Source of the DNA: Candidatus Bathyarchaeia archaeon
GTDB lineage: Archaea; Thermoproteota; Bathyarchaeia; TCS64
Assembly (NCBI GenBank): GCA_050014495.1
Contig: JBEKDF010000014.1
Coordinates: 1 to 64,000, forward strand
DNA length: 64,000 nt
Direction of reading: 5' to 3'
The notes under the pieces were generated by a model, which saw nothing but the letters and a program-made list of their open reading frames with translations, made no database searches and was not told where the DNA came from. Shown piece by piece: positions 1 to 15,467 of this stretch (position 1 is its first letter; each line of letters opens with the position of its first letter). The translations under genes were made by a program, and so were the position numbers.

Positions 1-237
1 GTGGCTCGGGGTCCTGCGCTTGAACCCGCAGGCTCTCGCTAGTCTGCGGTCTTTCCTCAGCCGTAGTGCTAGTCTCCTGTCGCTGGGTATCTGTAGTAGG
101 TGTTTGGCGAGCTGGGCCTTGAGCATCGAGAGTGGGTTGATGGGTTTTCTTCCCGGTCCCTCTAGGTGGTAGTGTTCCGCAAGTTCTGCGCGTATCTGGT
201 TTAGATTGAGTGAGTCAAGCACGCGCTCAACGTTCAA
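1..237 (-). mobile_element. IS transposase N-terminus (DUF772-like, IS5/IS1182-type), runs off window start
   Basis: Manual translation from TTG at 237: MNVERVLDSLNLNQIRAELAEHYHLEGPGRKPINPLSMLKAQLAKHLLQIPSDRRLALRLRKDRRLARACGFKRRTPSH. The GR.P..P..MLK...S.R.L...CG...P.H pattern is typical. Possible IS end at ~276-290 (AATTTCTAAACAGGT). Not in the ORF track. Confidence 0.8.
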
Positions 238-475
238 CCTATCCTCGTTGGTTGGTTAGGTTGGTGATCTATAACAATTTCTAAACAGGTAAGCGCGCAT
301 CTACGAAGAGGTTGAAGAGGTACTTTGTCTTGATGCCTCATAGGGAGATAGAGGTTCTCCTATGGCCTGAAAGCACAAGCGAGGCAATAATGAAGGAGGC
401 TCTCGACAGGATCGAGGCAGCCACAAAGCAACTTGGCTACACATCAACTCTTTTTACCATGCACGCAATCTTGGA

Positions 476-1525
476 GTGGTTGAGACTGTGGAATTAGCCA
501 ATGAGATTGTTTCGAAGGCTCTTGAGCTGGGCTACGCCAAATGCGGGATAGTTAAGATAAGTCAAATGAAGGAGTACGCGAAGGAGCTTGACAAACGCGT
601 CAAACTTTACCCAGAAGTTGAGCCAATCTACAGGCACTTCTACTCATTCTCCAAGCCAGAGGAAGACTATCCCTGGGCGAAATCCATTATTGTATGTGCG
701 AGGTGGTATGGGCGGTACCACCTTCCCGATGGCTTGAAGGGAAAAATAGCGAAGTACTACCAAGTTGACAGCAGAAAGGACGCTAAATCTAAGGAGTACA
801 CGGACAGCACCACATTCGAAGCCTACCTCAAAAAGCGAGGACTAAAAACTGCAACCAAAAGAGACTTTGGCATAACTGCCCTCCGCTGGGCAGCTATGAA
901 AGCTGGCATCGGAGTGGTCCGAAAAAACAACTTCTTCTACACTGAGAAGGGCTCATGGATATTCTTGGAAGCTTGGCTTATTAACGAAGAGCTTGAGCAT
1001 ATATCTCAAAGCGATGCGAAGGATTGCCCAGCCTCATGTAACCTATGCATAAAGAGCTGCCCAACGGGCTCCCTATCAGCACACTATACTATGAATCACT
1101 TATCATGCGTCTCATGTCTCACGACCTTTGAGGGCTGGGATTGGACTACCGATAAGTACCAGCCTCAAACGGGCGACTGGATTTTTGGCTGCGAAAACTG
1201 TCAGGATGCCTGCCCATTCAACCATAAGTCGTGGGTTGAGGAGGAGGCGTTTCCAGGTCTCGATGATTTGGGTGAAAAGATCTCCCTCGAGAAACTAGTT
1301 GAAATGGACTACGATTTCCTGAGAGATATCATCCAGCCCAAGTTTTGGTATATTCCAAAGGACAAGGTTTGGAAGTGGAAGACAAACGTCTTGAACGCCA
1401 TGTTGAATAATTATCACCCTCGATACTACCCTTACATAGAAAAAGCATGCAATGATCAAGACGAACATGTTCGTAGAATGGCACAGTGGGTAATTTCTAG
1501 ATTGAATAATTCATCTTCGGACTAG
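476..1525 (+). CDS. Epoxyqueuosine reductase (QueG)-like Fe-S/cobalamin protein
   Basis: AGIGVVRKNN, GSWIFL, CPASCNLCIKSCP, CVSCLT and FGCENCQDACPFN motifs with a C-terminal HEAT-like end. Confidence 0.8.
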   Translation: MVETVELANEIVSKALELGYAKCGIVKISQMKEYAKELDKRVKLYPEVEPIYRHFYSFSKPEEDYPWAKSIIVCARWYGRYHLPDGLKGKIAKYYQVDSRKDAKSKEYTDSTTFEAYLKKRGLKTATKRDFGITALRWAAMKAGIGVVRKNNFFYTEKGSWIFLEAWLINEELEHISQSDAKDCPASCNLCIKSCPTGSLSAHYTMNHLSCVSCLTTFEGWDWTTDKYQPQTGDWIFGCENCQDACPFNHKSWVEEEAFPGLDDLGEKISLEKLVEMDYDFLRDIIQPKFWYIPKDKVWKWKTNVLNAMLNNYHPRYYPYIEKACNDQDEHVRRMAQWVISRLNNSSSD

Positions 1526-2315: not shown

Positions 2316-2891
2316 TCAAAGAAATGTCTCAGGTTCCTTCCGATCTGGGAAAGTATCATGAAGCCACTTCGCCTCCTTGACGAAGAATGGGTGTGTCATC
2401 ACCCTTGCGCCTGTTGGACAGTTTTTGATGCATGCGTAGCATCTTATACAGGCCTGCTTCTGCGTCTCGACTGTGGAGCCGATTGTTATGGCGGCGTTTG
2501 GGCAGACCTCAGCGCATTTGCCACACTTTGTACAGGTTTCCTCTTTCGTGATTGGGGCAGGTGGCTCGGTACCGGGTTTGGCTGCGCGGGATATTCGGAA
2601 TTCGTCTCTGTATGGGCGGTTACCGTTGACGGCTATCGAAGGGAGGTCCTCTTTGTTCCTAGCAGTTAATAGCTTCTCCCTGATTTTCGAGCCGAATTCC
2701 CGGGCTTTTTTAAGGTCGGAGCCATCTGGGCGACCTGCGGCTATGGGGACTTCTGGGGAGCTGAATGAGTGTTCAGCGATGAAGGCGCCGCCCGCGATGG
2801 GCTTGAATCCAAGCTCTGAGATTAGGTCGGTCAGCTCGATTAGGGCGTCTTCGTATGCCCTATTACCGTAATACAACCAGGGTGACTGCGG
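2316..2891 (-). pseudogene. EFR1-type flavodoxin/ferredoxin, 5'-truncated and frameshifted
   Basis: YGNRAYEDAL, AEHSFS, GRPD and two CxxCxxCxxxCP motifs. The upstream PAVTLVV lies in another frame (one extra T), and the gene is cut at the GC palindrome 2891-2902. Confidence 0.8.
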
Positions 2892-2901
2892 GCGCGCGCG
2901 C

Positions 2902-3542
2902 CTGTGTGATGGCTCCGGCGAACGAGAACGAGAAGAGACACGCCTCTACGCTGGGGGAGAGGACCAGGGTCGTCCTCCGCAGGGCGGGGGCGGGGCTGAG
3001 GAGGTTGATCGGCGACAGCCAGTACAGCAGTGCTAGGGTTAGGAGCCTCGTCGAGGAGTCGGTGATACCCTACACCGCGAATCAGCGCGGCGACGGTCTG
3101 AGGGTGGATAGGTGGTTTAGGACGCATGGTCCACCTGGGCTGGTGTCGGAGTATAGGAAGCGTCCCATGGTGGAGGCGCTCTTCGCTTTCTTGAGGACCC
3201 AGTTCGGCTTGAATGTGGTTAGGGTGAGGGGTTTGTGGGTGTCTCCGTCTACTCTCTGCTGAGTATGTTGTGCTGTGTGTTGAATAGGGAGGCGGCGGAG
3301 AACATGGGTCGGCCGGAGAAGGCGATGTCGCCGTCGTTCTTTAACACGTGAAGGTTCGCAGATTCGTGGGGTGCGGGGGGTTTGTTAGTGGGTGTTGGGC
3401 TTGTGTGTGTCGTTTTTCAGTCGTTTTTGCTGGTTGTGTGGTTTGTCATCGGGGTTTTACTTGTGTGGTGTTTTCGCTGGGGTTGTTTGTTGGGGTTTTG
3501 TTGGTGATTGTTGTTCTATGTATTTAATTTAGGGACGAGCTA
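2902..3542 (+). mobile_element. IS remnant: C-terminal half of a DDE transposase (IS4/IS5 superfamily), frameshifted, with G/T-rich 3' tail and right end
   Basis: PANENE, LIGDSQYSS (second catalytic Asp) and YRKRPMVEALFAFLR (YREK-like). The reading continues in another frame as VSVYSLLSMLCC...FFNT* ending at 3351. Putative end ...AATTTAGGGACGAGCTA at ~3542. Confidence 0.8.
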
Positions 3543-4113: not shown

Positions 4114-4392
4114 CTAGTCCGTGCGCGCTTCTTCTTCCTCTCGTTCTGTTAACCATTTTCTAAACCAGATATCAGTCTCTTTAGTAAGGATAACGTGGCT
4201 TATTTTGTGTCGCTTGCCATCAACCCCACGATGATATTCTATTAAGCCTCGTTCCTCAAGGCTTTTCAGACTATGTAAGTATGATTTTCTGAAAGTTGGT
4301 GTCAGAGAGTCCTCTTTATACTCTTTAGCTACCTCTTTTTTTAAGTCTTCCAGATATACAGTTTGTGTGGTTGGAGGATATCGAAACATCAT
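4114..4392 (-). CDS. Small winged-helix DNA-binding protein (possibly relic)
   Basis: SLKSLEERGLIEY...VILT wHTH pattern. The frame stays open upstream (NLSHLEKIILDNI) to a TAG at ~4482. Confidence 0.5.
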   Translation of the reverse strand: MMFRYPPTTQTVYLEDLKKEVAKEYKEDSLTPTFRKSYLHSLKSLEERGLIEYHRGVDGKRHKISHVILTKETDIWFRKWLTEREEEEARTD

Positions 4393-4650
4393 TCTGGCTA
4401 TATTATCCAGAATTATCTTCTCGAGATGACTCAGATTTGGCTGAAAACGGTTATCATCTATACGAACGTTATCCGTTTCCTAACCACCTAAGAAAACACC
4501 TGAGGTGGGGCTATTAATACTTGGTTAATAACCAGAGCTTAGAGCTACTCAACTAGTAAAAATTTATCAAGAAATATTTGAAAATAATTCAAAGGTTATC
4601 ATCTAGTACGGTGATATCCTTGGCATTGGGCGCAAGGGAGGAGAGAGTTC

Positions 4651-4917
4651 ATGGCAAAGGTTTGGATAGAATTAACTGAGAAGGAGAAAACTGAAGTGAA
4701 CAGGGAAATGTGTGAAACCAGCCAGAAGAATATGGTAGTCTATTATAGTGCAGAGATTAAGGCGGCATTATTAGGAAAATCACTCCCCAAACACATCTCT
4801 AAGACTCTCTTTGGTAATGGAATAATGGTTAGGTCTGGGTCTGGTGGTAGACAAGGGCTGCGGTTCAAGATCGATCAAAATGTATTTAAGAAATACAGAG
4901 GTTTAATTGAAAAATGA
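4651..4917 (+). CDS. Small basic hypothetical protein, divergent from the wHTH gene
   Basis: ATG preceded by GGGAGGAGAG; 88 aa; AT-rich divergent intergenic region. Confidence 0.5.
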   Translation: MAKVWIELTEKEKTEVNREMCETSQKNMVVYYSAEIKAALLGKSLPKHISKTLFGNGIMVRSGSGGRQGLRFKIDQNVFKKYRGLIEK

Positions 4918-5549
4918 GTTATTTAGCATATTTTTTCCCTTGAGGATCAGGATCGAGACCAAATAGTTTCTAACTAACCTATCTCAGCGCGTCAGACCCG
5001 CGTAGTCGTGGGAAGGAAGGTGACTAACTATGCTATTATTCAAATGTTGCATTTTGAATTTGTTTTTAATCTTCAGAGAGTATGTCGGAGCTGATTTGCG
5101 TTCAGGTGAATGAGGAATTATCGCTTGAACGCTGCGCGCGCATTCTGCTCTATAAAAACACGCCATACTTGGACTCTGACAAGAGTCGTATCACTTCAGA
5201 TCCTCCATTACAATCGCCCTCTTCTTGCCTTAAGCAATGGACACTAACACTATTGCACGAGAACTTCCTAAACTCCTCGACTAACTTTGCCCCCGCAGGT
5301 GAGAGCTTCGGTATTACGCCATCTGGCTTGTCAACTATTTTCACGGGTAGGACTTTGGACTTGGTCTTGACTAGGTGTGGAGTAGTTCCTTCTTGATTAC
5401 TACCTTCGGGGACACTTTCTTGGAAGTAGCACACGCAAATCTGTCTTTAAAATCGATCGCGCGCGCTCACGAAAAAACAGTTAACTATTCTTCTTAATTA
5501 GGCTATAAAATCTTATTAAAGCCACATTATTTATTCAGATAAGTTCAAC

Positions 5550-7826
5550 ATGAGAATATTACGCGCTCGCAATTTTTTCGTTCCAACAATATTTGTGATC
5601 TTCATCTTCCTCTTTACACAAATCCCGGACTGTAAATGTGCGCAACCTCAAGTTTCCTATACTCTGAGCTACTCCGTAAATGGGGGAGGGAACAGATACT
5701 CCCCGCCCACAGTAACCTACACATCAAATGGCGTACAGCATATTCAGATACTTGGTTCACAGGTAACCACCTATCGCCTCGACGTGAACACACAATGGAG
5801 CATCACAAACCCACTTTCAGGCTCACTGCCATACGAGAGATGGCAAACGAACCAGAACACAGCGGGTACAGCTAATGCCAACCAAACTATAGCATTAGTC
5901 TATTACCATCAAGTCACAGTGCAGTTTGGATACAACATCCTCAAAGGAGGCTCCGGATTCTCACCTCCATACGTATCCTATACAAGGTTTGGGTCAGCAA
6001 TGGCAAACAAGACGGTGACTATCGTTTGGGTGGACTACGGGTCAGCCTACTCCTACGTTAATCCACTAGCGGGGTCAAAACTGGGTGAGAGATGGATCAC
6101 CGCTAAACCCACTGGCACTGTAACCTCCTCGACCCTGATCACCCCAGACTATTATCACCAATACTACATAGTCTTCGACTACGGCATCAGCGGAGGCGGC
6201 AATCCCACTGCCCCCTCGGTAAAATACATTGCTTTGGGACTTGACCAGGACCCATTGCAGGCCAACCCTAGCCAGTCAACCTGGGCAGACGCCCAGTCAA
6301 CCTACACATACTCGCCCAATCCCCTAACTAGCTCTGGTACGAATGAGAGGTGGCAGGCCTCAACCACACCCTCCGGAACAGTCTCATCCTCAACAACCAT
6401 AAGACCCGTCTACTATCATCAGCTACTCCTGACGCTATCATACAATATATTAGGAGGCGGTTCGCCAAGTCAACCATCATTCAGGGCTCCAGCATTTGGC
6501 TCCAACTCAAAGCAGGCTCTCACAACATCGCCGACCAACTATTGGTTTGATAGTGGCGCCTCGTGGACCGAGGCGGGCACGCTCGATGGATCGAGCCTCA
6601 CCGAGCGCTGGAGCACCGGGCAACCTATAACCGGGGTAATTACCATCACGAAGACCCTATCATTTAACTACTACCACCAATACGCTGTAACCCTAAATTA
6701 CAGGGTCAGCGGGGGCACTGGATTCACTCAGCCAACAGTTAACATAATCAGCTTTGGTATAGCGACTTCGACTAACTCTACCTCCAATCTCTGGCTAGAC
6801 AGCGGCTCCAGTTACAATTTTCAAAACCCACTGATCGGTTCAAACGATTCAGAGAGGTGGTATGCAGCCACCTCAACCGGAAACATCCAGGCAACGGGAA
6901 CAATTGCTAAGCTCTACTACCATCAATTCAGCGTCATCTTCAGTTTCACTACACTGTACGGCGGCTCACCTAATTCACCATCTATCAAATACGTTTCCCT
7001 CGGATCATCATCTACGCAAGAAGTGACATCCGCCGATTCATCAACTTGGGCTGACGCAAACACGACTTACACGTATCCGCAGATACTTCTAGGAGGCTCA
7101 GATTCTGAAAGATGGCTGATCACTCCCTCAGTCAACGGTAAAATAACGAGCTCCATTAAGGTGTCTCCAACTTACCTGCATCAATACTATGTGAAGATAG
7201 AACCAAGTCTAACGATAGCCGGATCCGCGTCACAACCCAGCGACTGGCATAACTCGACTTCCCAAATATCAATATACCCAACGGCTGCAGATGGCTGGCG
7301 TTTCGAGGGTTGGGCCGGCAGCGGGGAAGGGTCCTACACGGGTCCTTTGCTAAATGCCACGTTCATTGTCTCGGCCCCAATTACGGAGAAGATGATATTT
7401 TACCCCGGCTTGAAAATTAATGCAAATGGCTGGGGCTACATCGCCTACACCCTTAATTCCAGCAACGCCACAGTAAACGCTGGGAACCTCACAACAGTCT
7501 ATGTACCAGTCGGGACAACTCTAGGACTAAGCGAGCATCCTAATTCCTTCCTCTATTCATTCATCAACTGGACTGGGGAAGTGAACAGCACATCCAACTT
7601 CATCATATTAACAATCAACAAGCCATTAAACGAACAGGCGAACTTCGGGTATAACTACCTACTCATCGGACTGATCGTAGGAATCGAAGCTGCCATCGTA
7701 ATAATAGCCTATTTTGCATCGGGTGGACGCTCGCATAACATCATAAAGCTCATCGCGAAGGCAAAAGCTGTGATGAAAACCAAACTGAACCGTAACGATA
7801 CACGTGTGGTCGAGTCAAACCAATAA
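5550..7826 (+). CDS. Cell-surface protein with six ~85-aa beta-rich repeats, two further repeat domains and a C-terminal TM anchor
   Basis: Signal peptide; repeats Y.I.GGG..P...W.D.GS.Y...NPL.GS..ERW...YYHQ; WRFEGWAG and FINWTG motifs; TM segment YLLIGLIVGIEAAIVIIAYF followed by a basic tail. Confidence 0.85.
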   Translation: MRILRARNFFVPTIFVIFIFLFTQIPDCKCAQPQVSYTLSYSVNGGGNRYSPPTVTYTSNGVQHIQILGSQVTTYRLDVNTQWSITNPLSGSLPYERWQTNQNTAGTANANQTIALVYYHQVTVQFGYNILKGGSGFSPPYVSYTRFGSAMANKTVTIVWVDYGSAYSYVNPLAGSKLGERWITAKPTGTVTSSTLITPDYYHQYYIVFDYGISGGGNPTAPSVKYIALGLDQDPLQANPSQSTWADAQSTYTYSPNPLTSSGTNERWQASTTPSGTVSSSTTIRPVYYHQLLLTLSYNILGGGSPSQPSFRAPAFGSNSKQALTTSPTNYWFDSGASWTEAGTLDGSSLTERWSTGQPITGVITITKTLSFNYYHQYAVTLNYRVSGGTGFTQPTVNIISFGIATSTNSTSNLWLDSGSSYNFQNPLIGSNDSERWYAATSTGNIQATGTIAKLYYHQFSVIFSFTTLYGGSPNSPSIKYVSLGSSSTQEVTSADSSTWADANTTYTYPQILLGGSDSERWLITPSVNGKITSSIKVSPTYLHQYYVKIEPSLTIAGSASQPSDWHNSTSQISIYPTAADGWRFEGWAGSGEGSYTGPLLNATFIVSAPITEKMIFYPGLKINANGWGYIAYTLNSSNATVNAGNLTTVYVPVGTTLGLSEHPNSFLYSFINWTGEVNSTSNFIILTINKPLNEQANFGYNYLLIGLIVGIEAAIVIIAYFASGGRSHNIIKLIAKAKAVMKTKLNRNDTRVVESNQ

Positions 7827-8591
7827 CTAATTTTTCCCAAGCAGAACATCTGGACTCAAGACGGCAATCTCTGAGTAGAGACTCTTAGTCGCGTCCACAA
7901 ACGCGGAGCCAGAGGTGGCTTCCCAGGTCAACTTCTTTGCAGCGACTTTCCCCAGCAGCTCAAGTGGCTTAGAAGGGTCAGCCCTTCTCAGCATCGCCTC
8001 CTGGACAGATGCGACACCGAATATCATCGCGTACACTCTCTGCATGTTTACTTCGCTAATAATTGGCTTAAGCAACAGGAGATTTGACTCCATCTCAGAG
8101 TAGGGTCCAATCAGGGACTGCGAGAGCATCCCCCTGAATTGGGTCACCGGATCCTCTCCTTCGCCAACCCTTTCCAACTTGCGCATAATCGCCTCACGTG
8201 GGTTAACACTCAGCTCCCTGAGATCCTCCATCGCCTTCGCGCGTTCCAAGAGGAAGTTGATTACGGAGGTGTCTACAGTTTTGACTATTTTCTCCCTTCT
8301 CTCACGTTCTAGACTGTAAGGTTTGTTTACGATATCAGTTATTTGGTCATAGGTTGCCTTGTCGATGATATCGAATGAAAGGTCGTTAATCCTTAATTTG
8401 AGCCCATCTACAGAGATCTTTGTGGAGTCACCGTAAGTAGTATGCCCAACAGGGATCAACTCGGAGCTTCTCAGGGTCTTTTTCAGCTTAGACACGCCTA
8501 TAGTCTTCTCTTCCTCGACTATCCTGATTTCACCGGCTTCGTAGTATTCTCCCCTGAACCAGATATTCCAAACCTTCGTCGAGTAAACCAC
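7827..8591 (-). CDS. Hypothetical protein (beta-rich, possibly PH-like N-domain plus helical C-domain); last gene of the tubulin-like operon
   Basis: 254-aa ORF abutting the upstream gene (8592/8591). Confidence 0.75.
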   Translation of the reverse strand: MVYSTKVWNIWFRGEYYEAGEIRIVEEEKTIGVSKLKKTLRSSELIPVGHTTYGDSTKISVDGLKLRINDLSFDIIDKATYDQITDIVNKPYSLERERREKIVKTVDTSVINFLLERAKAMEDLRELSVNPREAIMRKLERVGEGEDPVTQFRGMLSQSLIGPYSEMESNLLLLKPIISEVNMQRVYAMIFGVASVQEAMLRRADPSKPLELLGKVAAKKLTWEATSGSAFVDATKSLYSEIAVLSPDVLLGKN

Positions 8592-9635
8592 CTAATTCAC
8601 CCCCAAGCTCAACGACGGTATCCTCCTCGCTATCGATCTATACCCGGCCTCGATTTTCTCCAAGATAGGGTCCTCGCTGAGTCCATAGAAAATGTATAGG
8701 TCGCAGAAGTTGTATCGGGAGGATTTCTCACGTAAAATAACCTCGGAGTTTAGGAGATCCTTGAAGCCCAAGCAATAGTTCTTGAAGGTATCCTCTATCC
8801 CTAGGCGAAGCTCCCTTGGCGATAGCCCAAGAAGGTGGATGCTCTGGTAGCCTCCCTCGACGCCTTCGATGGAGTTCATGAAGGCGTTAATTTTGAATAA
8901 AGTCTCCATGTTCCTATAGACCTGATCCGAGGCGGAGAGGAGGGTAGAGATGGAGTGATTCATTATTCCGAGTTTCTTGTCACCCTCGATAAAGTGGCTC
9001 AGAGTTTGGATATTGGATGCTAGGTTTTTGACGACTTCCTCAAACGCAGCATCACCAGTGATCAACCCCTGGTCCTCGTCGAAGTAGGCGAGGCTTTTGA
9101 CATATTTTTCCTCAACAAGGACTAACGACCACCCCTTTTCATGCGCTTTTTTCAGGGCAATGTAGCACGTGTTTTTAACCAGTGGGGTTGAGGAATCATC
9201 CGCAGTTATAGCCAGCATTGTTTCGTTTCCCTCCAGCATGGAACTGTTTAGGGTGGCTAAAGATAGTGGACTGTTAGTGTTCACTACAATCATTTTATAT
9301 TTTGAGATATTGTAGCAGACTCTCCTCAACCACCCGTCGATTTGATTCGAGCACCTTTTTGAGTAGTCGAGCCATGTCCCTCCGTCTATCTGCTTCAGGG
9401 TAAGTGATTTTGTTGCCTCAGCGTCTTCGCTGCCAATCACAATCTTTGATACAAATGCATCCTTTACTTCAGCGCAATCGAGGCCTACGAACAGTACAAT
9501 AAGGTCCTCAAACCTCACCTCCGTCTCCGGGAGGTCGACTAGTTCCCTAACGAGTTGATCGTAGGGAACAGGCGAATTGCACTCTGGGCAATTCAGATCC
9601 CAGACGGTTGCATGGCAGTTCTGGCAGCTAGGCAT
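8592..9635 (-). CDS. Zn-ribbon protein with a probable degenerate tubulin/CetZ-like fold
   Basis: CQNC...CPEC at the N-terminus; alpha/beta pattern; C-terminal LYIFYGLSEDPILEKI resembles the CetZ C-terminal strand; overlaps the upstream gene by 8 nt. Confidence 0.7.
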   Translation of the reverse strand: MPSCQNCHATVWDLNCPECNSPVPYDQLVRELVDLPETEVRFEDLIVLFVGLDCAEVKDAFVSKIVIGSEDAEATKSLTLKQIDGGTWLDYSKRCSNQIDGWLRRVCYNISKYKMIVVNTNSPLSLATLNSSMLEGNETMLAITADDSSTPLVKNTCYIALKKAHEKGWSLVLVEEKYVKSLAYFDEDQGLITGDAAFEEVVKNLASNIQTLSHFIEGDKKLGIMNHSISTLLSASDQVYRNMETLFKINAFMNSIEGVEGGYQSIHLLGLSPRELRLGIEDTFKNYCLGFKDLLNSEVILREKSSRYNFCDLYIFYGLSEDPILEKIEAGYRSIARRIPSLSLGVN

Positions 9636-11886
9636 TTTTCATTATAACCTCTTTATCCTCATCATATTTTATCTCCGGGTTATTGTTAGCGTAGTAAGCT
9701 GCATAAATCTGGGCTGCTCTGCGCTGAAAAGGGAGAGTGGAGATCTCGAGTGCATTCTGTTCGGCTAACTCGTTTTTAATGATCTTCATAGCTACGGGCA
9801 GCTGGGATAGGATTATGAGATTGCCCTCGTCCGACTTCTTGCTGGCTCCATAATTCTTCATAAAGTCCGTCAACTCCTCAACGATCTCGGTCGAATCACG
9901 TAGGGTTGGTTTGGCGTTTAGGTTTCTATCCCTCAGGCTCTGAAGTCTCGTGGAGTAGTTGAAGACCTCGAAGTGGATGACCTTCGTGGTCCCTGGAAAG
10001 CTGTTGATGAGCTTTTGGAGTTGGGTGATCTCGCCCGAGACGTCGTTGAGAACATCATCTAAGGTCTGTTTAAGGTTCTTAACCTCCTCGAGTATCAGAA
10101 TAGAGTTAACTGGCTTAGGTTCTGCTAATTTTTCAGTCATGAGTTTTAGCGTCTGTCCCCTCTTCTGGTCTAGGAGTTCAATCAGACTCTCGGTCTTCTC
10201 CAGCAGTGATGCTACGAGGCTCTCTAGCTCGGGTTGGTTCTTTATGTGGAAGTTGAGCCAATATTCCTCCGCGAGCAGCTTGACGCCACCTTCATAGTCG
10301 TTGGATTCGAATAGTCGGGTGGGATCCACCGGCGGGTGCACGTCAAGCTGGGAGGTTACAACGTTGAAGGCGTTAAAGGTAGCCTTGTAGGTGTTGAAGA
10401 TGTCTTTTGAATTATTCTTAATATCGTTGAGAAGAAGCGAGTAGTCTTTAAGGGCCTGGTTAAAATCCAGGTTTCTATTTACTTCCGCCAATTCGGAGAA
10501 GCTCTTCTTTAACCCCACCTCCTTTAATATGTTGTTGTAAGTGACGACGAGTGAAATGAGGTAGTGCAGCTCACCTGTCACCCTGACTCTGACTGCATCT
10601 GAAAAATGCATCGCCTTCGGTGTCAGAACGTTATCCAGCTCTTGGATCCACTCATTAAGAGTCTCGAAACTTGCAGTGCTAAAACCCCTCCAATAGTCGT
10701 TTATGGTTGACTCCGTCTCCTCCACGGTTTTCGCTTCAGGGCTAAGTATGATTGAGGGGGCCTCAAGTGTGGCTTGGTTAATCAATTTTTTACATGGGTC
10801 TATTAGCTTCTTTATGGCTCCGATCTTCTGTGAAACTTCGATCCTCGCCTTCTCCGTCCTCTCCAGCAACTGGATCCCATACTCCCTCGCAGTGAAGACT
10901 GCGCCAAGAACAAGCGATGACATAGCCATCCAGATCATTGTTGAGGTGTCGAGAGACGTCTGATAGCCGCCTATGTTGGTTTGCGAAAGTACTGTTATGA
11001 GTATGTAGAAGGTGAGCGGCGTCACTATGGAAGCGACGATGGGAGAAATCAAATGCAACATCTGGTTAGCCTGCTCAAATACTGAAAACTTATCAAGAAA
11101 ACTGCTTATTCCACTAGCCACTCCGGCGGATAGGATGAATATTAGGAAGAGGATGATTAGTGGTATCAAGAGGAAAAAAACCATTCCGTTGGAGAGGTAG
11201 TTTTTGACCGGCGCAGCGACAAGGGGGTTGTAGAAGTCGGGGGAGACATTGGTTAGGAAGATGTTAAGCCCTGGTATAGGGGGGCGCATATACTTGGAGA
11301 AGTTGATGAGCTGTGTAAAGATAAGGGGTGTAGTACGCGTTAATTGGCTACCCGCCTCAGAGATGAAGGCGTTCTCAACCACTAGGAGAGGTATCATAGT
11401 CAGAACGTAGGTTAAAGAGACTGGGCCAATGCTTGAGAGCCCACCGATTATGGCCGCCGCAACTATCAGTGGCACAGAGAGATAGTAGTAAGGCGTGAAC
11501 ATCATGGCTACTGCGAGGATGGCTATAGCCATCGATGTGGCTTCATGCCTGGCGCTGAATAGGTTGACCAGTAGAGCCCCCACGGAGATTATGATGAATG
11601 CTAATCCTGCATTGTTTGTAACTGTCCAAACAGAGAAGCCGGTTAGTTGGTAGAAGATTGTTATGAAGACGATGAGACTGAGAATTGTTGAGGAAAACTT
11701 CGGGTTATAGTGGAGAGCAGTAGAGAAGAGGAGGATCGAGACTAGTAGAGGAAATACGGGTGCGCCTGGTAGAAAGTTGATAGCAGCCATGAAGGCAAAG
11801 GAGGAGATACCAATTATCGTGGCTGAGGTATACTTGTCTACGGTTGCGCGTAACTTGGGAGTGATCTCTTTGAATTCGATCTCCAC
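9628..11886 (-). CDS. Polytopic membrane protein (~9-10 TM) with a ~400-aa helical C-terminal region
   Basis: Hydrophobic segments over aa ~20-335, then an E/K/L-rich helical sequence. Confidence 0.85.
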   Translation of the reverse strand: MEIEFKEITPKLRATVDKYTSATIIGISSFAFMAAINFLPGAPVFPLLVSILLFSTALHYNPKFSSTILSLIVFITIFYQLTGFSVWTVTNNAGLAFIIISVGALLVNLFSARHEATSMAIAILAVAMMFTPYYYLSVPLIVAAAIIGGLSSIGPVSLTYVLTMIPLLVVENAFISEAGSQLTRTTPLIFTQLINFSKYMRPPIPGLNIFLTNVSPDFYNPLVAAPVKNYLSNGMVFFLLIPLIILFLIFILSAGVASGISSFLDKFSVFEQANQMLHLISPIVASIVTPLTFYILITVLSQTNIGGYQTSLDTSTMIWMAMSSLVLGAVFTAREYGIQLLERTEKARIEVSQKIGAIKKLIDPCKKLINQATLEAPSIILSPEAKTVEETESTINDYWRGFSTASFETLNEWIQELDNVLTPKAMHFSDAVRVRVTGELHYLISLVVTYNNILKEVGLKKSFSELAEVNRNLDFNQALKDYSLLLNDIKNNSKDIFNTYKATFNAFNVVTSQLDVHPPVDPTRLFESNDYEGGVKLLAEEYWLNFHIKNQPELESLVASLLEKTESLIELLDQKRGQTLKLMTEKLAEPKPVNSILILEEVKNLKQTLDDVLNDVSGEITQLQKLINSFPGTTKVIHFEVFNYSTRLQSLRDRNLNAKPTLRDSTEIVEELTDFMKNYGASKKSDEGNLIILSQLPVAMKIIKNELAEQNALEISTLPFQRRAAQIYAAYYANNNPEIKYDEDKEVIMKNA

Positions 11887-11891
11887 CCCAC

Positions 11892-14504
11892 CTACTCGTC
11901 ACCTATATTGGCCAGCTCGGAGACGTCGTGGATTCCCTGCTCGAGGAGGAGGCTGCGGAATAGCACCCTCTCAGATTTCTTTACCGAGTCTGCATCGCTC
12001 TTCATCGAGGAGAACTTCTCTAGGTCTTCCATCCTCGCTTTGGCGAAGATGACGAGGAATGTGATCGTCCACGGGTCGATCTGGTCGATCTGCCTTATTG
12101 AGATGCTTTTGCTAGCTTCCACGCTTGAGAAGACGTTAAGTGTGTTAGATAGCATGCCCTGCAGCTGCTGGTCCCATAGACCCCCCGGGATGCTTACGGT
12201 TGTCCAGATGAGATCAGTGCGGTAATGGTCAGAGAGGCCCACGTAGTTTGCTACGCTGAATATCCTAACGTAGGACTTCACAATGTCCCTGAATCGGTCG
12301 CGGTCAACGATGTCCTTGAGGATGCCGTCGCCCTTTAGGTTAGATTCCTCCTCCTTAAGGATCTTGTCCATTATCTTTACTTGCTCGACCTCACTCAGCT
12401 CGACGACGCGTTCATAATAGTTGCCCGTCTTCGTAATCTGACTGAGGGCAGCGTTCAGCTCGTTTGTCTTTGTATAAACGAAGTTGAGGTTCTTGCGGTA
12501 GGTGGAGGTGACCTCGAGGCTCTTCTCGAACAGGGTCATCTTCTCAACCTCCTGCCTAATCGACTCCAGTGCGATCTTATGCTCATCGTAGTTGCTCCTT
12601 ATATTGATGAGCTCAGTCTGCAGGTTTTTGAGGTTCTTCTCAAGCACCCTCTTCTTGCCGTCGAAGTCAACCCAAATTTTGTTGACCTCGTTCTTGATTC
12701 GCTTCTCCTCGGATTCCTTCTGGTTCAGCTGCCTCTGCAGCGACTCGACGTCCCCCGACTCTTCTTTTAACCTCGACTCTATATTTTTTCTTATGATCTT
12801 TATGCTAGGGACATAGTTATCGCTCATCTTGATCTCGGTCTCGGCACGCGTTAGAATGACTCCCGCGGTCTTATACAGGGGGAGAAGCTCAGTGTCGCCG
12901 ATTGTGCTGATCCTTATTCCAGTTCTCGATTTGTCTTTGGTGTATCGTATAGCGAGTTCATCGGCCAGTGCTTTGCTTCTCAAGTAGCTCTTGGTTGTGT
13001 CTATCGCTACCGCTAGAAGGGTTATCAGGTTAATGTATGACCTTATCTGCCGTATCTGGGTCGATGTGAGAAACTTGCTTGCTGTGATGCTATTCTCGAG
13101 CTCCGACATGAACTGCTGGACTGTCTTGTTGTAGTCCTCGTAGTTCTTATCGATGTGAACTATTCTCTCCCTGAAAACATTGATCTGCTGCATTACCGAA
13201 TACTCAACCGTGTCCTCAGAGAAGTTTAGAGCCATAAGAGTCTTGTTCCACTTATCATTATAGTAGGCCGCAAAGTCACTTAGACCCTTGATCTGCTTTC
13301 TTAACTCTGACTCGTACTTACCGCCCCTGTGGATTACGTCCTCAACATCGTTGTTGAAGGTGTCAGCTCTGTATCCGCCCACCGCTATAAGTTGCCTCTT
13401 GTAGAGTTCGACGAACTCATTGTATCGGTTATTGAGAATGTCGTTGATCTTGCTGAGGACGTCCCTCTTGGAGTTCATCAGTTCCCCAGCGTTGTCGGCA
13501 AGTTGGAGGTACTCATGCAGGTATTTCACATAGTCATCAACTGGGTATTTGATCTTGAGGTAAGCTATCGAGTGTATCCAGTTGGAGCCAAAGTCGTTGT
13601 TGGTTCCCACCCTCGATAAGAGGTCAGCTAGGTCGAAGCTGCTGAACATGTTTAAGATGTCTATCACAGAGTCGTCGAGCTCCTTTTTCGCCGTCATTAG
13701 GTTGTTGCGGTTGTTGTATATGGGGTCTAGCGCCATGAAGAAGAGGGAGTTGAGAGGGTTCTTGTAGGCGTCTCCGTATTTTTTGACTATCTGCTCGTTG
13801 AGGGTGTTGTTGAAGAAGAGCTCCAACTCCATGAGCGCGTTGTATGGGGCGGGACCTCGTGCGAGGAGGTCATCAGCTGTGCTTGGGAGTATCGTCATTC
13901 CAATTATTGGGACCGATGAACCGAGTTTGGATCTGAGGTGGCGAGCAAAGTCCATGACCATTCCACTGCCGGTTCCGCCACCTAGCCCAAAGAGGACAAC
14001 AACTATTGGTTGGAATTTGGAGGTTAAGACACGGTCCTTGAAGACCGACATCACAGAGTTCAACTCGGAGTAGTGGAAGTAGTTGAGGTTGTATACGGCC
14101 TTGCTGAGGGCCCTCTGGCGCCCGACACCTCCCGCGAGTGGGGGAATGGAGATTGAGGATTTTAGCCAAGGCTGGTAGTTCTTGATCTGAATACCCTCCT
14201 TCTCAACGTACTTATCGTATTTCTCCATGAACTCGAAGAGCGAGTCGGGTGTGTTGAATTTGATGTTCAGAGCCCTTACCCAAAGCTTCTCCACCGGTAT
14301 GCCCTTTGACGCTAGTTTCTCGAGCGTGGCCTTGTACGCATTCTGGAGGTTGTTTAAGTCTCCGTCAGCTACATCTATGGCAAGGCAGGCGATGCTGAAG
14401 TCCTCAGATTGAAGTAGGTTCTGAAGACGAGCGCTCTCTAGAAGAGTCTGAATGAGGTTTGCCCCGGTACCCCCTAAACCAATGAGGTGAATGTTGGAGA
14501 ACAT
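11892..14504 (-). CDS. Tubulin/FtsZ-superfamily GTPase with a long coiled-coil insertion (FtsZl/Tubulin_2-like)
   Basis: IGLGGTG (T1), GGVGRQR (T3), GLGGGTGSG signature (T4), ILPS (T5), FDLADL (T7-like); heptad-rich aa ~330-740; alpha/beta C-terminal segment. Confidence 0.92.
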   Translation of the reverse strand: MFSNIHLIGLGGTGANLIQTLLESARLQNLLQSEDFSIACLAIDVADGDLNNLQNAYKATLEKLASKGIPVEKLWVRALNIKFNTPDSLFEFMEKYDKYVEKEGIQIKNYQPWLKSSISIPPLAGGVGRQRALSKAVYNLNYFHYSELNSVMSVFKDRVLTSKFQPIVVVLFGLGGGTGSGMVMDFARHLRSKLGSSVPIIGMTILPSTADDLLARGPAPYNALMELELFFNNTLNEQIVKKYGDAYKNPLNSLFFMALDPIYNNRNNLMTAKKELDDSVIDILNMFSSFDLADLLSRVGTNNDFGSNWIHSIAYLKIKYPVDDYVKYLHEYLQLADNAGELMNSKRDVLSKINDILNNRYNEFVELYKRQLIAVGGYRADTFNNDVEDVIHRGGKYESELRKQIKGLSDFAAYYNDKWNKTLMALNFSEDTVEYSVMQQINVFRERIVHIDKNYEDYNKTVQQFMSELENSITASKFLTSTQIRQIRSYINLITLLAVAIDTTKSYLRSKALADELAIRYTKDKSRTGIRISTIGDTELLPLYKTAGVILTRAETEIKMSDNYVPSIKIIRKNIESRLKEESGDVESLQRQLNQKESEEKRIKNEVNKIWVDFDGKKRVLEKNLKNLQTELINIRSNYDEHKIALESIRQEVEKMTLFEKSLEVTSTYRKNLNFVYTKTNELNAALSQITKTGNYYERVVELSEVEQVKIMDKILKEEESNLKGDGILKDIVDRDRFRDIVKSYVRIFSVANYVGLSDHYRTDLIWTTVSIPGGLWDQQLQGMLSNTLNVFSSVEASKSISIRQIDQIDPWTITFLVIFAKARMEDLEKFSSMKSDADSVKKSERVLFRSLLLEQGIHDVSELANIGDE

Positions 14505-14510
14505 GTCAAA

Positions 14511-15467
14511 CTATGCCTCTTCGAGTTTGTCTCGGAGCCTCTTCAGCTCACCGGCGAGTGACTCATCGTATCGCGCCGCTGTGACCTCTAGACCCGCCAG
14601 CTGGTTCCGTGTGTCATCTATTGTTGACTGCTTCATGGTTGCCTTCGAGTTGGCCCGAGAGAACATGAGGAAACCTAAGACTGCCGCTACCGCTACCAAA
14701 ACCACAGCCCCAATTAGAATAGTCTGAAGTGAGTTATTAGGCGGAGGTGGGAAGTTGCTGGTGTTGATCACGTTCAAGATATCCGTTGCCTTCTCGGGTA
14801 GCCCGAGGTTATATATAATATCCGCTTGTGCGAGTACTCCATTTACTAGTGACTCATAAGATTTGTCTATCTGTCCCGCTGATATCATGTTGGATTTCTG
14901 GTTGGCTGTTGATAGGTAGTTCTCTATGGATGGGTCAGAGACGTTGAGGCTAATGACGCCAACTGATGAGCCTCCAGTGACAAAGATCTGAATGAGGGAG
15001 TAATTCTTTAGCATGAATCGATAGGTTTGGCCTAGTGCCTGCTTGGTTGTTACATCAGCAGGGATCTGAAAGAGAACCTCAAGTTGGATCTTTCCCTCAA
15101 CTTGCTTGAATAGGATGCTTCTTTCACCTGGGGTGAATGTAGCTGAATTGTATCCTCCATAGTTCTTCGTGAGCAAGTACCAATATTGTGTCACGCTGGG
15201 AGACATGGCACTACTTAGTGATACATTGAAGTTTGAGCCATTTTGGGTGAATGGCACGTCAACCTGCAATGTTAAGTTGTATGAATCGCCGGCGAGGAGT
15301 GGTTGTCCTATGGGCACAGGTGTTTTGCTCGTCTTATCCTGTATAGATATAGTAGAGGCCCAATTTGTGGAGGCGCCGAAGACGGTTGTTAAAGGCCCCA
15401 TTATATAGCTGGCAATTATCAGCGTTATCAGTAGGTATTTAGTCACTCTGTGATTCATGGTTGACAT
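14511..15467 (-). CDS. Secreted/membrane-anchored protein; first gene of the tubulin-like operon
   Basis: N-terminal signal peptide, beta-rich N/S/T-rich ectodomain, PPPP linker, C-terminal TM and short coiled-coil tail. Confidence 0.85.
   Translation of the reverse strand: MSTMNHRVTKYLLITLIIASYIMGPLTTVFGASTNWASTISIQDKTSKTPVPIGQPLLAGDSYNLTLQVDVPFTQNGSNFNVSLSSAMSPSVTQYWYLLTKNYGGYNSATFTPGERSILFKQVEGKIQLEVLFQIPADVTTKQALGQTYRFMLKNYSLIQIFVTGGSSVGVISLNVSDPSIENYLSTANQKSNMISAGQIDKSYESLVNGVLAQADIIYNLGLPEKATDILNVINTSNFPPPPNNSLQTILIGAVVLVAVAAVLGFLMFSRANSKATMKQSTIDDTRNQLAGLEVTAARYDESLAGELKRLRDKLEEA

Follow-up and report, generated by a model that had tools for sequence, protein, structure and literature searches.

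The stretch of DNA analysed here, called the window, comprises all 64,000 nucleotides (nt) of positions 1-64,000 on the forward strand of contig JBEKDF010000014.1 (Candidatus Bathyarchaeia archaeon, assembly GCA_050014495.1). It encodes an 870-amino-acid (aa) FtsZ-like-1 protein (FtsZl1, Pfam Tubulin_2), P0001, whose tubulin core is predicted to be split by a 413-residue helical insert at the position of the M-loop, a loop that makes lateral contacts in microtubules. From the motifs, the conservation and the gene cassette that we observed, together with the predicted folds, we consider it an evenly balanced proposition that P0001 forms a membrane-tethered protofilament, driven by guanosine triphosphate (GTP) and equipped with lateral arms, which would be capped or seeded by a nucleotide-dead paralogue. 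The gene and its parts, all on the minus strand, are as follows.

11892..14504, minus strand: P0001, 870-aa FtsZl1/Tubulin_2 protein with split tubulin core (open reading frame, motifs, Pfam, fold model, superposition)
13701..14504, minus strand: GTPase domain, residues 1-268, with T1 (GLGGTGAN), T3 (IPPLAGGVGR), T4 (GLGGGTGSG), T5 and T6 (motifs, model, T4 pattern in 72/72 homologues)
13542..13700, minus strand: H7-T7-H8-S7, residues 269-321, predicted first part of the C-terminal domain (model)
13623..13640, minus strand: T7/H8 motif SFDLAD, residues 289-294 (alignment, model)
12303..13541, minus strand: 413-residue helical insert, residues 322-734, at the S7-H9 (M-loop) position (model, superposition, insert-less relatives, alignment)
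12426..12848, minus strand: long helical hairpin in the insert, about residues 553-693 (helices 554-609, 617-663 and 668-690)
12648..12680, minus strand: hairpin tip, residues 609-619, KIWVDFDGKKR, basic and hydrophobic (alignment)
12303-12425, minus strand: end of the insert, residues 694-734, conserved like the core (alignment)
11895..12302, minus strand: residues 735-870, H9-S8-H10-S9-S10 and C-terminal helices, predicted to complete the C-terminal domain (model, superposition, profile matches)

The assignment of P0001 to FtsZl1 follows from its match to Tubulin_2 (PF13809; residues 7-252, E 1.3e-16, 61.2 bits at a cut-off of 27) and from its layout, in which an N-terminal FtsZ-like nucleotide-binding domain with the GGGTG(S/T)G signature is followed by an extended central helical region and a C-terminal domain. 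Residues 167-226 also match Tubulin (PF00091), and the rest of the protein had no Pfam family. Among 7,997 candidates scored, 170 proteins were homologous to P0001. The best 120 of these 170 are listed; they are mostly full length and 35-100% identical, and the named ones come from Nitrososphaerales, Bathyarchaeia, Thermoprotei, Dehalococcoidia and Sulfolobus tengchongensis (WP_338602146.1, 44% identical). An alignment of 72 of the 120 is the basis of all counts out of 72 given here. The closest named genome locus among the best 80 of 271 loci was that of a Bathyarchaeota metagenome-assembled genome (94%). Solved structures close in sequence to P0001 were not found (best E 0.02 by sequence and 5e-4 by profile). 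In three cases (L005:10001-12590, L056 and G029:C24) the long tubulin gene lies in two frames, owing to a frameshift or an assembly error.

AlphaFold2 was run on the 72-sequence alignment without templates, and secondary-structure elements were named according to tubulin-superfamily usage. The resulting model had a mean predicted local distance difference test score (pLDDT) of 89.1 (85-89 for the five models) and a predicted template modelling score of 0.79, and it was confident throughout except for part of the T3 region. In the model, the GTPase domain (1-268) is followed by H7 (269-288), the T7 loop (289-291), H8 (292-299) and S7 (310-319). Residues 322-732 are helical nearly all the way, and H9 (735-750), S8 (766-771), H10 (779-792), S9 (801-806), S10 (813-823) and further helices (831-865) form the last part. 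This order of elements is that of the tubulin superfamily. An initial annotation, made from the sequence, had read HSIAYLKIKYP as the first C-domain strand after a T7-like DLADL and had proposed that the remaining strands resume only after some 400 helical residues. We located DLADL at 291-295 and HSIAYLKIKYP at 311-321, in line with the modelled strand at 310-319, whereas LIWTTVSIP (765-773), ISIRQI (801-806) and WTITFLVIFA (812-821) indeed lie beyond the 413-residue insert.

Rigid superposition of the model against 48,161 chains, of which the 50 best rows were listed, returned full tubulin-superfamily chains in all 16 best rows, with Z scores of 19-25 for CetZ, FtsZ and tubulin. The CetZ chain 3zid_B reached Z 25.1 with a root-mean-square deviation (rmsd) of 3.2 over 308/342 residues (model 2..845 to chain 1..343) and CetZ2 4b45_A reached Z 24.4 with an rmsd of 3.3 over 321/334. 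FtsZ 2vaw_A (Z 21.7) aligned model residues 1..823 to chain residues 10..316, model residue 823 being the end of S10. Tubulin chains aligned over 348-358 residues, from model residue 2 out to 865-867, which exceeds what residues 1-321 supply, so that the C-terminal stretch must take part; the superposed residues of P0001 are 1-321 and 735-865. Foldseek alone aligned about 330 columns and did not reveal the split, whereas the rigid aligner did. The C-terminal part of about 130 residues is thus predicted in silico to pack with the GTPase-domain core as the remainder of the C-terminal domain, so that the first refuting condition named in the initial annotation, a failure of these residues to pack, does not apply to the model. 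The model places the insert in the S7-H9 loop, that is, at the M-loop.

The insertion within the C-terminal domain, which had likewise been proposed beforehand, is also borne out by relatives that do not carry the insert and match both flanks. A profile search over 1.84 billion representatives gave 281 matches at E up to 0.001, and the best 150 that were listed included proteins of 470-590 aa with two matched stretches. Thirteen insert-less relatives of about 500-570 aa match P0001 at residues 2-284 (probability 100) and 735-864 (probability 97.4), and no match to the insert was obtained for these 13 (E 0.76). Between the two anchors P0001 has 450 residues, compared to 52 in the insert-less protein P0148. 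Strand S7 was not recovered in the profile alignment with these relatives (E 0.11; E 0.32) and was matched by eye only. For the long forms of halophiles and methanogens, profile support for the split domain was weak (E 0.005 and 0.0003; control 0.53), and for FtsZl1-type forms with N-terminal membrane spans it was absent (E 0.57). Two long proteins of the latter type, L086:9552-12707 and L087:6807-9857, have the layout described for SSO1376. By eye, H7 is followed in both by FDLxD, and a strand-helix-strand-strand block comes beyond the helical region; the profile did not confirm this.

Across the 72 homologues the insert measures 410-430 aa. Six helices (322-550), which probably pack as a bundle, are followed by the long hairpin (about 553-693), and the insert closes with a base (694-734) that is conserved and acidic. 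While the earlier description as a coiled coil of about 400 aa was right about a long helical insert, the model shows several helices and one long hairpin instead of a single coiled coil, and "helical arm with one long hairpin" appears to be the more fitting term. Conservation is lower in the insert (0.54-0.56) than in the core (0.71-0.73). Its last 41 residues (694-734), which include several acidic ones, reach 0.76, with at least 90% conservation at 14/41 positions, and may serve at the arm's base as a hinge or as a subdomain that binds partners. At the hairpin tip, G616 is present in 69/72 homologues and K or R at positions 617-619 in 67-72 of 72, which makes residues 609-619 a candidate contact to the membrane or to a partner. 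The structural matches of the hairpin are generic (SMC coiled coil, F-BAR, ESCRT-III), with Z up to 10.7, which is within the uninformative range of the aligner for helical bundles.

Dynamins are P-loop GTPases that are activated by head-to-head dimerisation. P0001 shares with dynamin-like proteins a GTPase head, a long helical arm and a possible membrane-contact tip. However, its GTPase domain has the tubulin fold by sequence and model, with T7-type activation predicted, and not the P-loop (G1-G4) domain of dynamins. Dynamin-family chains were absent among the 50 best superposition rows of the model, although a likeness is still possible. The "dynamin-like" character proposed at the outset therefore amounts to an analogy and not to homology.

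The elements that would be needed for GTP-dependent assembly are largely retained, which partly supports the proposal of the initial annotation that the T7 Asp allows GTP hydrolysis coupled to polymerisation. T1, T3, T4 and T5 are intact in P0001, and D291 and D294 are each found in 72/72 close homologues; a matching pattern of T7 aspartates occurs in 10/12 more distant full-length homologues. Judged by motif and position, these residues should correspond to D209 and D212 of FtsZ, and the family consensus NFDLAD resembles NVDFAD of FtsZ (GLMNVDFAD in Escherichia coli). Both longitudinal faces (T2-T6, T7-H8, H10-S9 loop and S9) are conserved at 0.78-0.99, compared to 0.54-0.56 for the arm. The values are 0.85-0.99 for T1-T5 and T7-H8, and 0.81-0.86 for the H10-S9 loop and S9. 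The two head-to-tail contact faces are among the best-conserved elements of P0001, which is no more than suggestive because buried and exposed positions are inseparable in this score. As the insert occupies a lateral site in the known tubulin topology, polymerisation need not be blocked by it.

P0001 is encoded in a cassette of five minus-strand genes that abut or overlap, the successive spacings being 6 nt, 5 nt, an overlap of 8 nt and 0 nt. The initial annotation had noted neither this cassette with its second tubulin-fold protein nor that FtsZl1 is a described family. The four partner genes are:

14511..15467, minus strand: 318-aa predicted single-pass membrane protein (49/50 well-flanked loci)
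9628..11886, minus strand: 752-aa predicted polytopic membrane protein with at least 7 hydrophobic segments and a long helical C-terminal part (49/50 well-flanked loci)
8592..9635, minus strand: 347-aa second tubulin-fold protein with an N-terminal zinc-ribbon-like motif of four Cys/His (model; 47/50 well-flanked loci)
7827..8591, minus strand: 254-aa soluble protein with beta-rich N-terminus and helical C-terminus (no significant family; 44/50 well-flanked loci)

The cassette was surveyed in 81 loci, namely the window and the 80 best of the 271 genome loci; 50 of the 81 had enough flanking sequence. The partner profiles were built from the same loci and are hence lenient. Homologues of the 318-aa, 752-aa, 347-aa and 254-aa proteins were present in 78, 71, 69 and 57 of the 81 loci, respectively, and in 49, 49, 47 and 44 of the 50 well-flanked ones; locus L069 had none of the four. 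Membrane spans are predicted in two partners and in no part of P0001. For the 318-aa protein the prediction comprises an N-terminal hydrophobic signal, an outer part resembling a beta-sandwich, a membrane span at 250-268 and a short helical tail; its structural neighbours are Ig/cohesin-like at TM scores below 0.5 only. Pfam and structural or profile comparison matched no named family to either membrane protein. A PH-like fold, suspected by eye for the 254-aa protein, and a winged helix, suspected in the 752-aa protein, were not confirmed by comparison.

The 347-aa protein had no Pfam match. Its model (pLDDT 90) has a predicted complete tubulin/FtsZ fold, superposing on BtubA with Z 21.8 and an rmsd of 3.5 over 293 aligned residues, with the first non-tubulin row at Z 7.3. 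It is homologous over its full length to its positional counterparts at other loci (probability 99.4), several of which match PF00091. A canonical T4 is present in 9/37 counterparts, while the T4 pattern occurs in 0/36 of the type found in the window, in which the T7 loop is also deleted. T3 and T5 are its best-kept patches (0.72-0.73). They lie on the face that would receive the T7 side of another subunit, which hints at a template for the minus end. A recent duplication linking P0001 and the 347-aa protein was excluded, as direct profile comparison matched T4-H5 only and the tree separates the two families. Complex prediction for the core, entered as two chains, together with the 347-aa protein and GTP scored 0.00, which counts neither way. 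In Dehalococcoidia (L020, L025, L027, L030 and others) and in L058 the second tubulin retains a GGGTGSG-type T4, and archaeal second tubulins form a natural series of GTP-site loss in which T4 decays stepwise to none. In L024, L033, L036, L046 and similar Bathyarchaeia loci, the second-tubulin gene remains clustered although it runs in the opposite direction, towards the long tubulin gene.

In the proposed protofilament, the two-domain core of P0001 would likely bind GTP and polymerise head to tail, with D291 and D294 of one subunit completing the active site of the next and thereby coupling hydrolysis to assembly. The insert would project sideways from the M-loop position, preventing microtubule-type lateral packing on its side, and would likely tether the filament to the membrane complex encoded in the cassette. 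Contact with the membrane could be made by the basic-hydrophobic tip of the insert or by way of the helical tail of the 752-aa membrane protein. Lacking both T4 and the T7 loop, the 347-aa paralogue may seed or cap one filament end, and the 318-aa protein may connect the assembly with the surface of the cell. The system would likely shape the envelope locally or scaffold a surface structure, as an accessory function distinct from cell division. This reading is supported by the conservation of both longitudinal faces, the invariant D291 and D294, the whole-chain superposition, the co-occurrence of the cassette genes, the membrane spans in two partners, the second tubulin fold and the precedent of the CetZ M-loop. 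The second tubulin is orthologous to versions that keep T4 elsewhere.

The precedent comes from CetZ, in which the M-loop is variable (3-26 residues) and matters for assembly (PMC9856176; bioRxiv 10.1101/2024.04.08.588506). CetZ, TubZ, BtubA and Asgard tubulins gave the best whole-core matches to P0001 (Z 19-25), which extend to the C-terminal helix that follows S10, and the helix H11 typical of the CetZ core is present in the model. In both CetZ and P0001 the M-loop is the variable site (for CetZ, PMC9856176). However, identity to these proteins is 10-16%, the gene contexts differ, and the compact build of CetZ (350-400 aa, M-loop below 30 residues) contrasts with the 870 aa of P0001 and its M-loop of 413 residues, compared to 3-26 in CetZ (PMC9856176).

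Several observations weigh against a filament. The initial annotation was right that the T7 aspartate is retained, but the T7 loop comprises only about 3 residues in the model and is devoid of the GxxN of FtsZ, and the N-position is occupied by N in only 42/72 homologues and by Ser in P0001. Of the full FtsZ T7 loop (GxxNxDxxD) on an uninterrupted core of about 320 aa, P0001 thus retains DxxD alone, on a split core. The conserved faces would suit a fixed dimer equally well, and a conserved DxxD after H7 was not seen by eye in the long relatives of halophiles and methanogens. The tip of the CetZ1 M-loop is dispensable for liposome binding (bioRxiv 10.1101/2024.04.08.588506), so that the M-loop site alone is no sign of membrane contact. 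Furthermore, the nearest insert-less relatives adjoin amidase and cobalt/nickel genes. They are probably acetonitrile hydratase subunits, which would mean that this branch is able to drop a cytoskeletal role.

The insert-less type was present on 14/16 plasmid records matched, including pRHL2 of Rhodococcus jostii RHA1. There, genes for 514-aa and 568-aa proteins enclose a 99-aa gene, with an amidase before and a nickel transporter after them, and the 568-aa protein matches positions 8-260 and 754-864 of the P0001 profile. The two proteins, WP_011600030.1 and WP_011600032.1, are the closest named relatives of P0001 by sequence (E 6e-71 and 1.5e-57) and in the tree. Their sizes presumably agree with those of acetonitrile hydratase subunits. 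Together with the gene order alpha-AnhE-beta of the RHA1 acetonitrile hydratase (PMC3511329), this suggests that the pair is probably AnhB/AnhA. Going by the old locus tags, it should also correspond to RHA1_ro10170 and ro10172, which appear in the list of FtsZl1 proteins (PMC2875224). P0001 and the pair have the N-domain and the region of residues 735-864 in common. In contrast to P0001, the pair carries neither the insert nor the T7 DxxD, stands in a metabolic context, and belongs to a group in which many members have a Cys-rich C-terminal motif. Neither this metal-binding motif nor the alpha-AnhE-beta order with an amidase was found in P0001 and its cassette. Similar insert-less gene pairs, with a small gene between them and amidase and cobalt/nickel genes alongside, occur at L083:8860-12440 and L084:8854-12513, and the Agrobacterium locus further has genes for a CbbQ/NorQ ATPase and for a vWA protein.

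A quick IQ-TREE phylogeny of the region surrounding T4 was inferred from 64 rows, including 8 FtsZ-type, 8 second-tubulin and 10 insert-less rows, with support from the Shimodaira-Hasegawa-like approximate likelihood ratio test only and a midpoint root. One row was dropped as it had no T4 match. The rows held no verified CetZ and, apart from the R. jostii pair, no listed FtsZl1 member. In this tree, 20/21 window-type proteins and the 10 insert-less proteins formed one clade (99) within a long-form clade (98), while the 8 FtsZ-type rows formed a separate branch (98). P0001 hence clusters with the R. jostii pair (99), which are probably listed FtsZl1 members, and not among FtsZ. With only long forms among the sister groups, loss of the arm by the insert-less proteins would be the simplest reading. 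The tree thus suggests a route from an arm-bearing protein to a metabolic metalloenzyme.

The gene is patchily distributed. Matches were found in 14/61 genomes searched (one weak) and in 2/17 genomes of the same genus, which points to an accessory trait, and a PF13809 match in a frame of at least 870 aa was found in 19/401 genomes of the phylum. The window copy is 58-67% identical to copies of Nitrososphaeria and 31-37% to most copies of Bathyarchaeia, which suggests transfer.

Four other explanations have to be weighed against the tethered filament. P0001 and the 347-aa paralogue might form a fixed heterodimer that acts as a non-polymerising GTP switch at a membrane machine for export, uptake or signalling, with the arm as lever or spacer. 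The tight operon with one copy of each gene, the shortened T7 loop and the closest relatives, which are paired paralogues of a probably heterodimeric enzyme, would fit such a switch, and in PMC2875224 a reviewer put forward transport or signalling as the role of FtsZl1. Yet both longitudinal faces of P0001 are conserved. With T4 and the T7 loop gone from the partner, the invariant T7 aspartates would have to meet the GTP site of a second long subunit, and we regard the switch as a serious but unlikely alternative. A metabolic metalloenzyme resembling the tubulin-fold acetonitrile hydratase would agree with the single clade that P0001 forms with the Rhodococcus pair (support 99). It is extremely improbable given one cysteine in 870 residues, no C-terminal Cys cluster, intact GTP motifs, and a cassette devoid of the small middle gene, the amidase and metal-uptake genes.

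The patchy and apparently transferred occurrence, with homologues in Dehalococcoidia and Sulfolobus, could also indicate that the cassette serves in conflict or in defence against viruses, its tubulin assembly sensing or blocking invaders at the membrane, and tubulin-coiled-coil fusions are part of predicted GAP1-N2 conflict systems with vWA proteins and GTPases (PMC7159879). However, across the 80 best of the 271 loci the composition of the gene set is constant and no slot with variable effectors is seen. PADLOC matched 0/6 proteins, and none of the five conserved genes was assigned to a vWA, kinase or P-loop GTPase family by Pfam and the locus survey, so that the vWA and P-loop GTPase genes, often with kinases, that mark FtsZl1-vWA operons and GAP1-N2 systems are missing; this option is distinctly improbable. 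A substitute division protein would be attractive in a host in which, at 95.95% completeness and 7.5% contamination (genome G000), the P0001 gene is the only PF00091 match, with no other tubulin or FtsZ, no SepF and no CdvA found. But the cassette gene was not found in 15/17 same-genus genomes, two of which (91-92% complete) also have no PF00091 match, and the host has one Snf7 match, a Snf7/CdvB-like gene. A role of P0001 in division is thus unlikely, and that of a replacement for FtsZ very improbable.

For FtsZl1 as a family, the layout of N-domain, coiled coil and C-terminal domain, by which it was defined, has been in print since 2010, whereas the existence of filament-forming elements was left open (PMC2875224, Makarova and Koonin 2010). 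T6-H7-T7 were not identified there, the C-terminal domain could not be related to that of FtsZ and tubulin, and three options were given: filament elements that are present but unrecognisable, a new route of polymerisation, or no polymerisation. P0001 resembles the described proteins in its GGGTGSG GTPase domain, long helical middle, C-terminal domain, patchy spread and membrane-protein neighbours (PMC2875224). It differs in that T6-H7-T7 and a tubulin-type C-terminal domain, split by the insert, are predicted to be present, and in that its cassette has a second tubulin-fold protein and no vWA, kinase or P-loop GTPase. For the P0001 branch, our analysis favours the first of the three options. 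Tubulin_2 proteins have elsewhere been excluded for want of FtsZ_C/Tubulin_C Pfam domains (PMC9871819), and an extended FtsZL1 is mentioned for Sulfolobales (Culexarchaeia preprint). The split domain, the M-loop insert and the cassette were not described in the literature searched, outside of which subscription journals and bioRxiv supplements may bear on the matter.

The exact boundaries, the candidate catalytic residues D291 and D294, the insert-less control, the candidate cap and the Sulfolobus homologue make this 15-year-old question testable, and a domain-sized M-loop insertion would widen the known tolerance of the tubulin fold. It may further be speculated, as a possible but rather doubtful extension of the tethered protofilament, that the cassette encodes an undescribed cytomotive machine. 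In it, the M-loop of the filament would have expanded to an arm of 400 residues gripping the membrane, a nucleotide-dead tubulin fold would serve as seed or cap in parallel to templating by gamma-tubulin, and a transmembrane link would lead to a surface protein; the bacterial tubulin-fold nitrile hydratase would have arisen from the same lineage by deletion of the arm.

Further features were observed around the cassette. A predicted surface protein of 758 aa (5550-7826, plus strand) is encoded convergently and ends one base from the last cassette gene. It consists of repeated beta-rich units ending in YYHQ-like motifs, and a homologue flanks the cassette in L010, L014 and L016, while a different protein of about 1,480 aa flanks it in 9 loci. 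Upstream of the cassette in L017, a second copy of the polytopic membrane gene lies in opposite orientation (4141-6519, minus strand). In the window, a short open reading frame that by eye resembles a transposase fragment (2855-3262, plus strand) is located near small DNA-binding-like reading frames (4114-4917).

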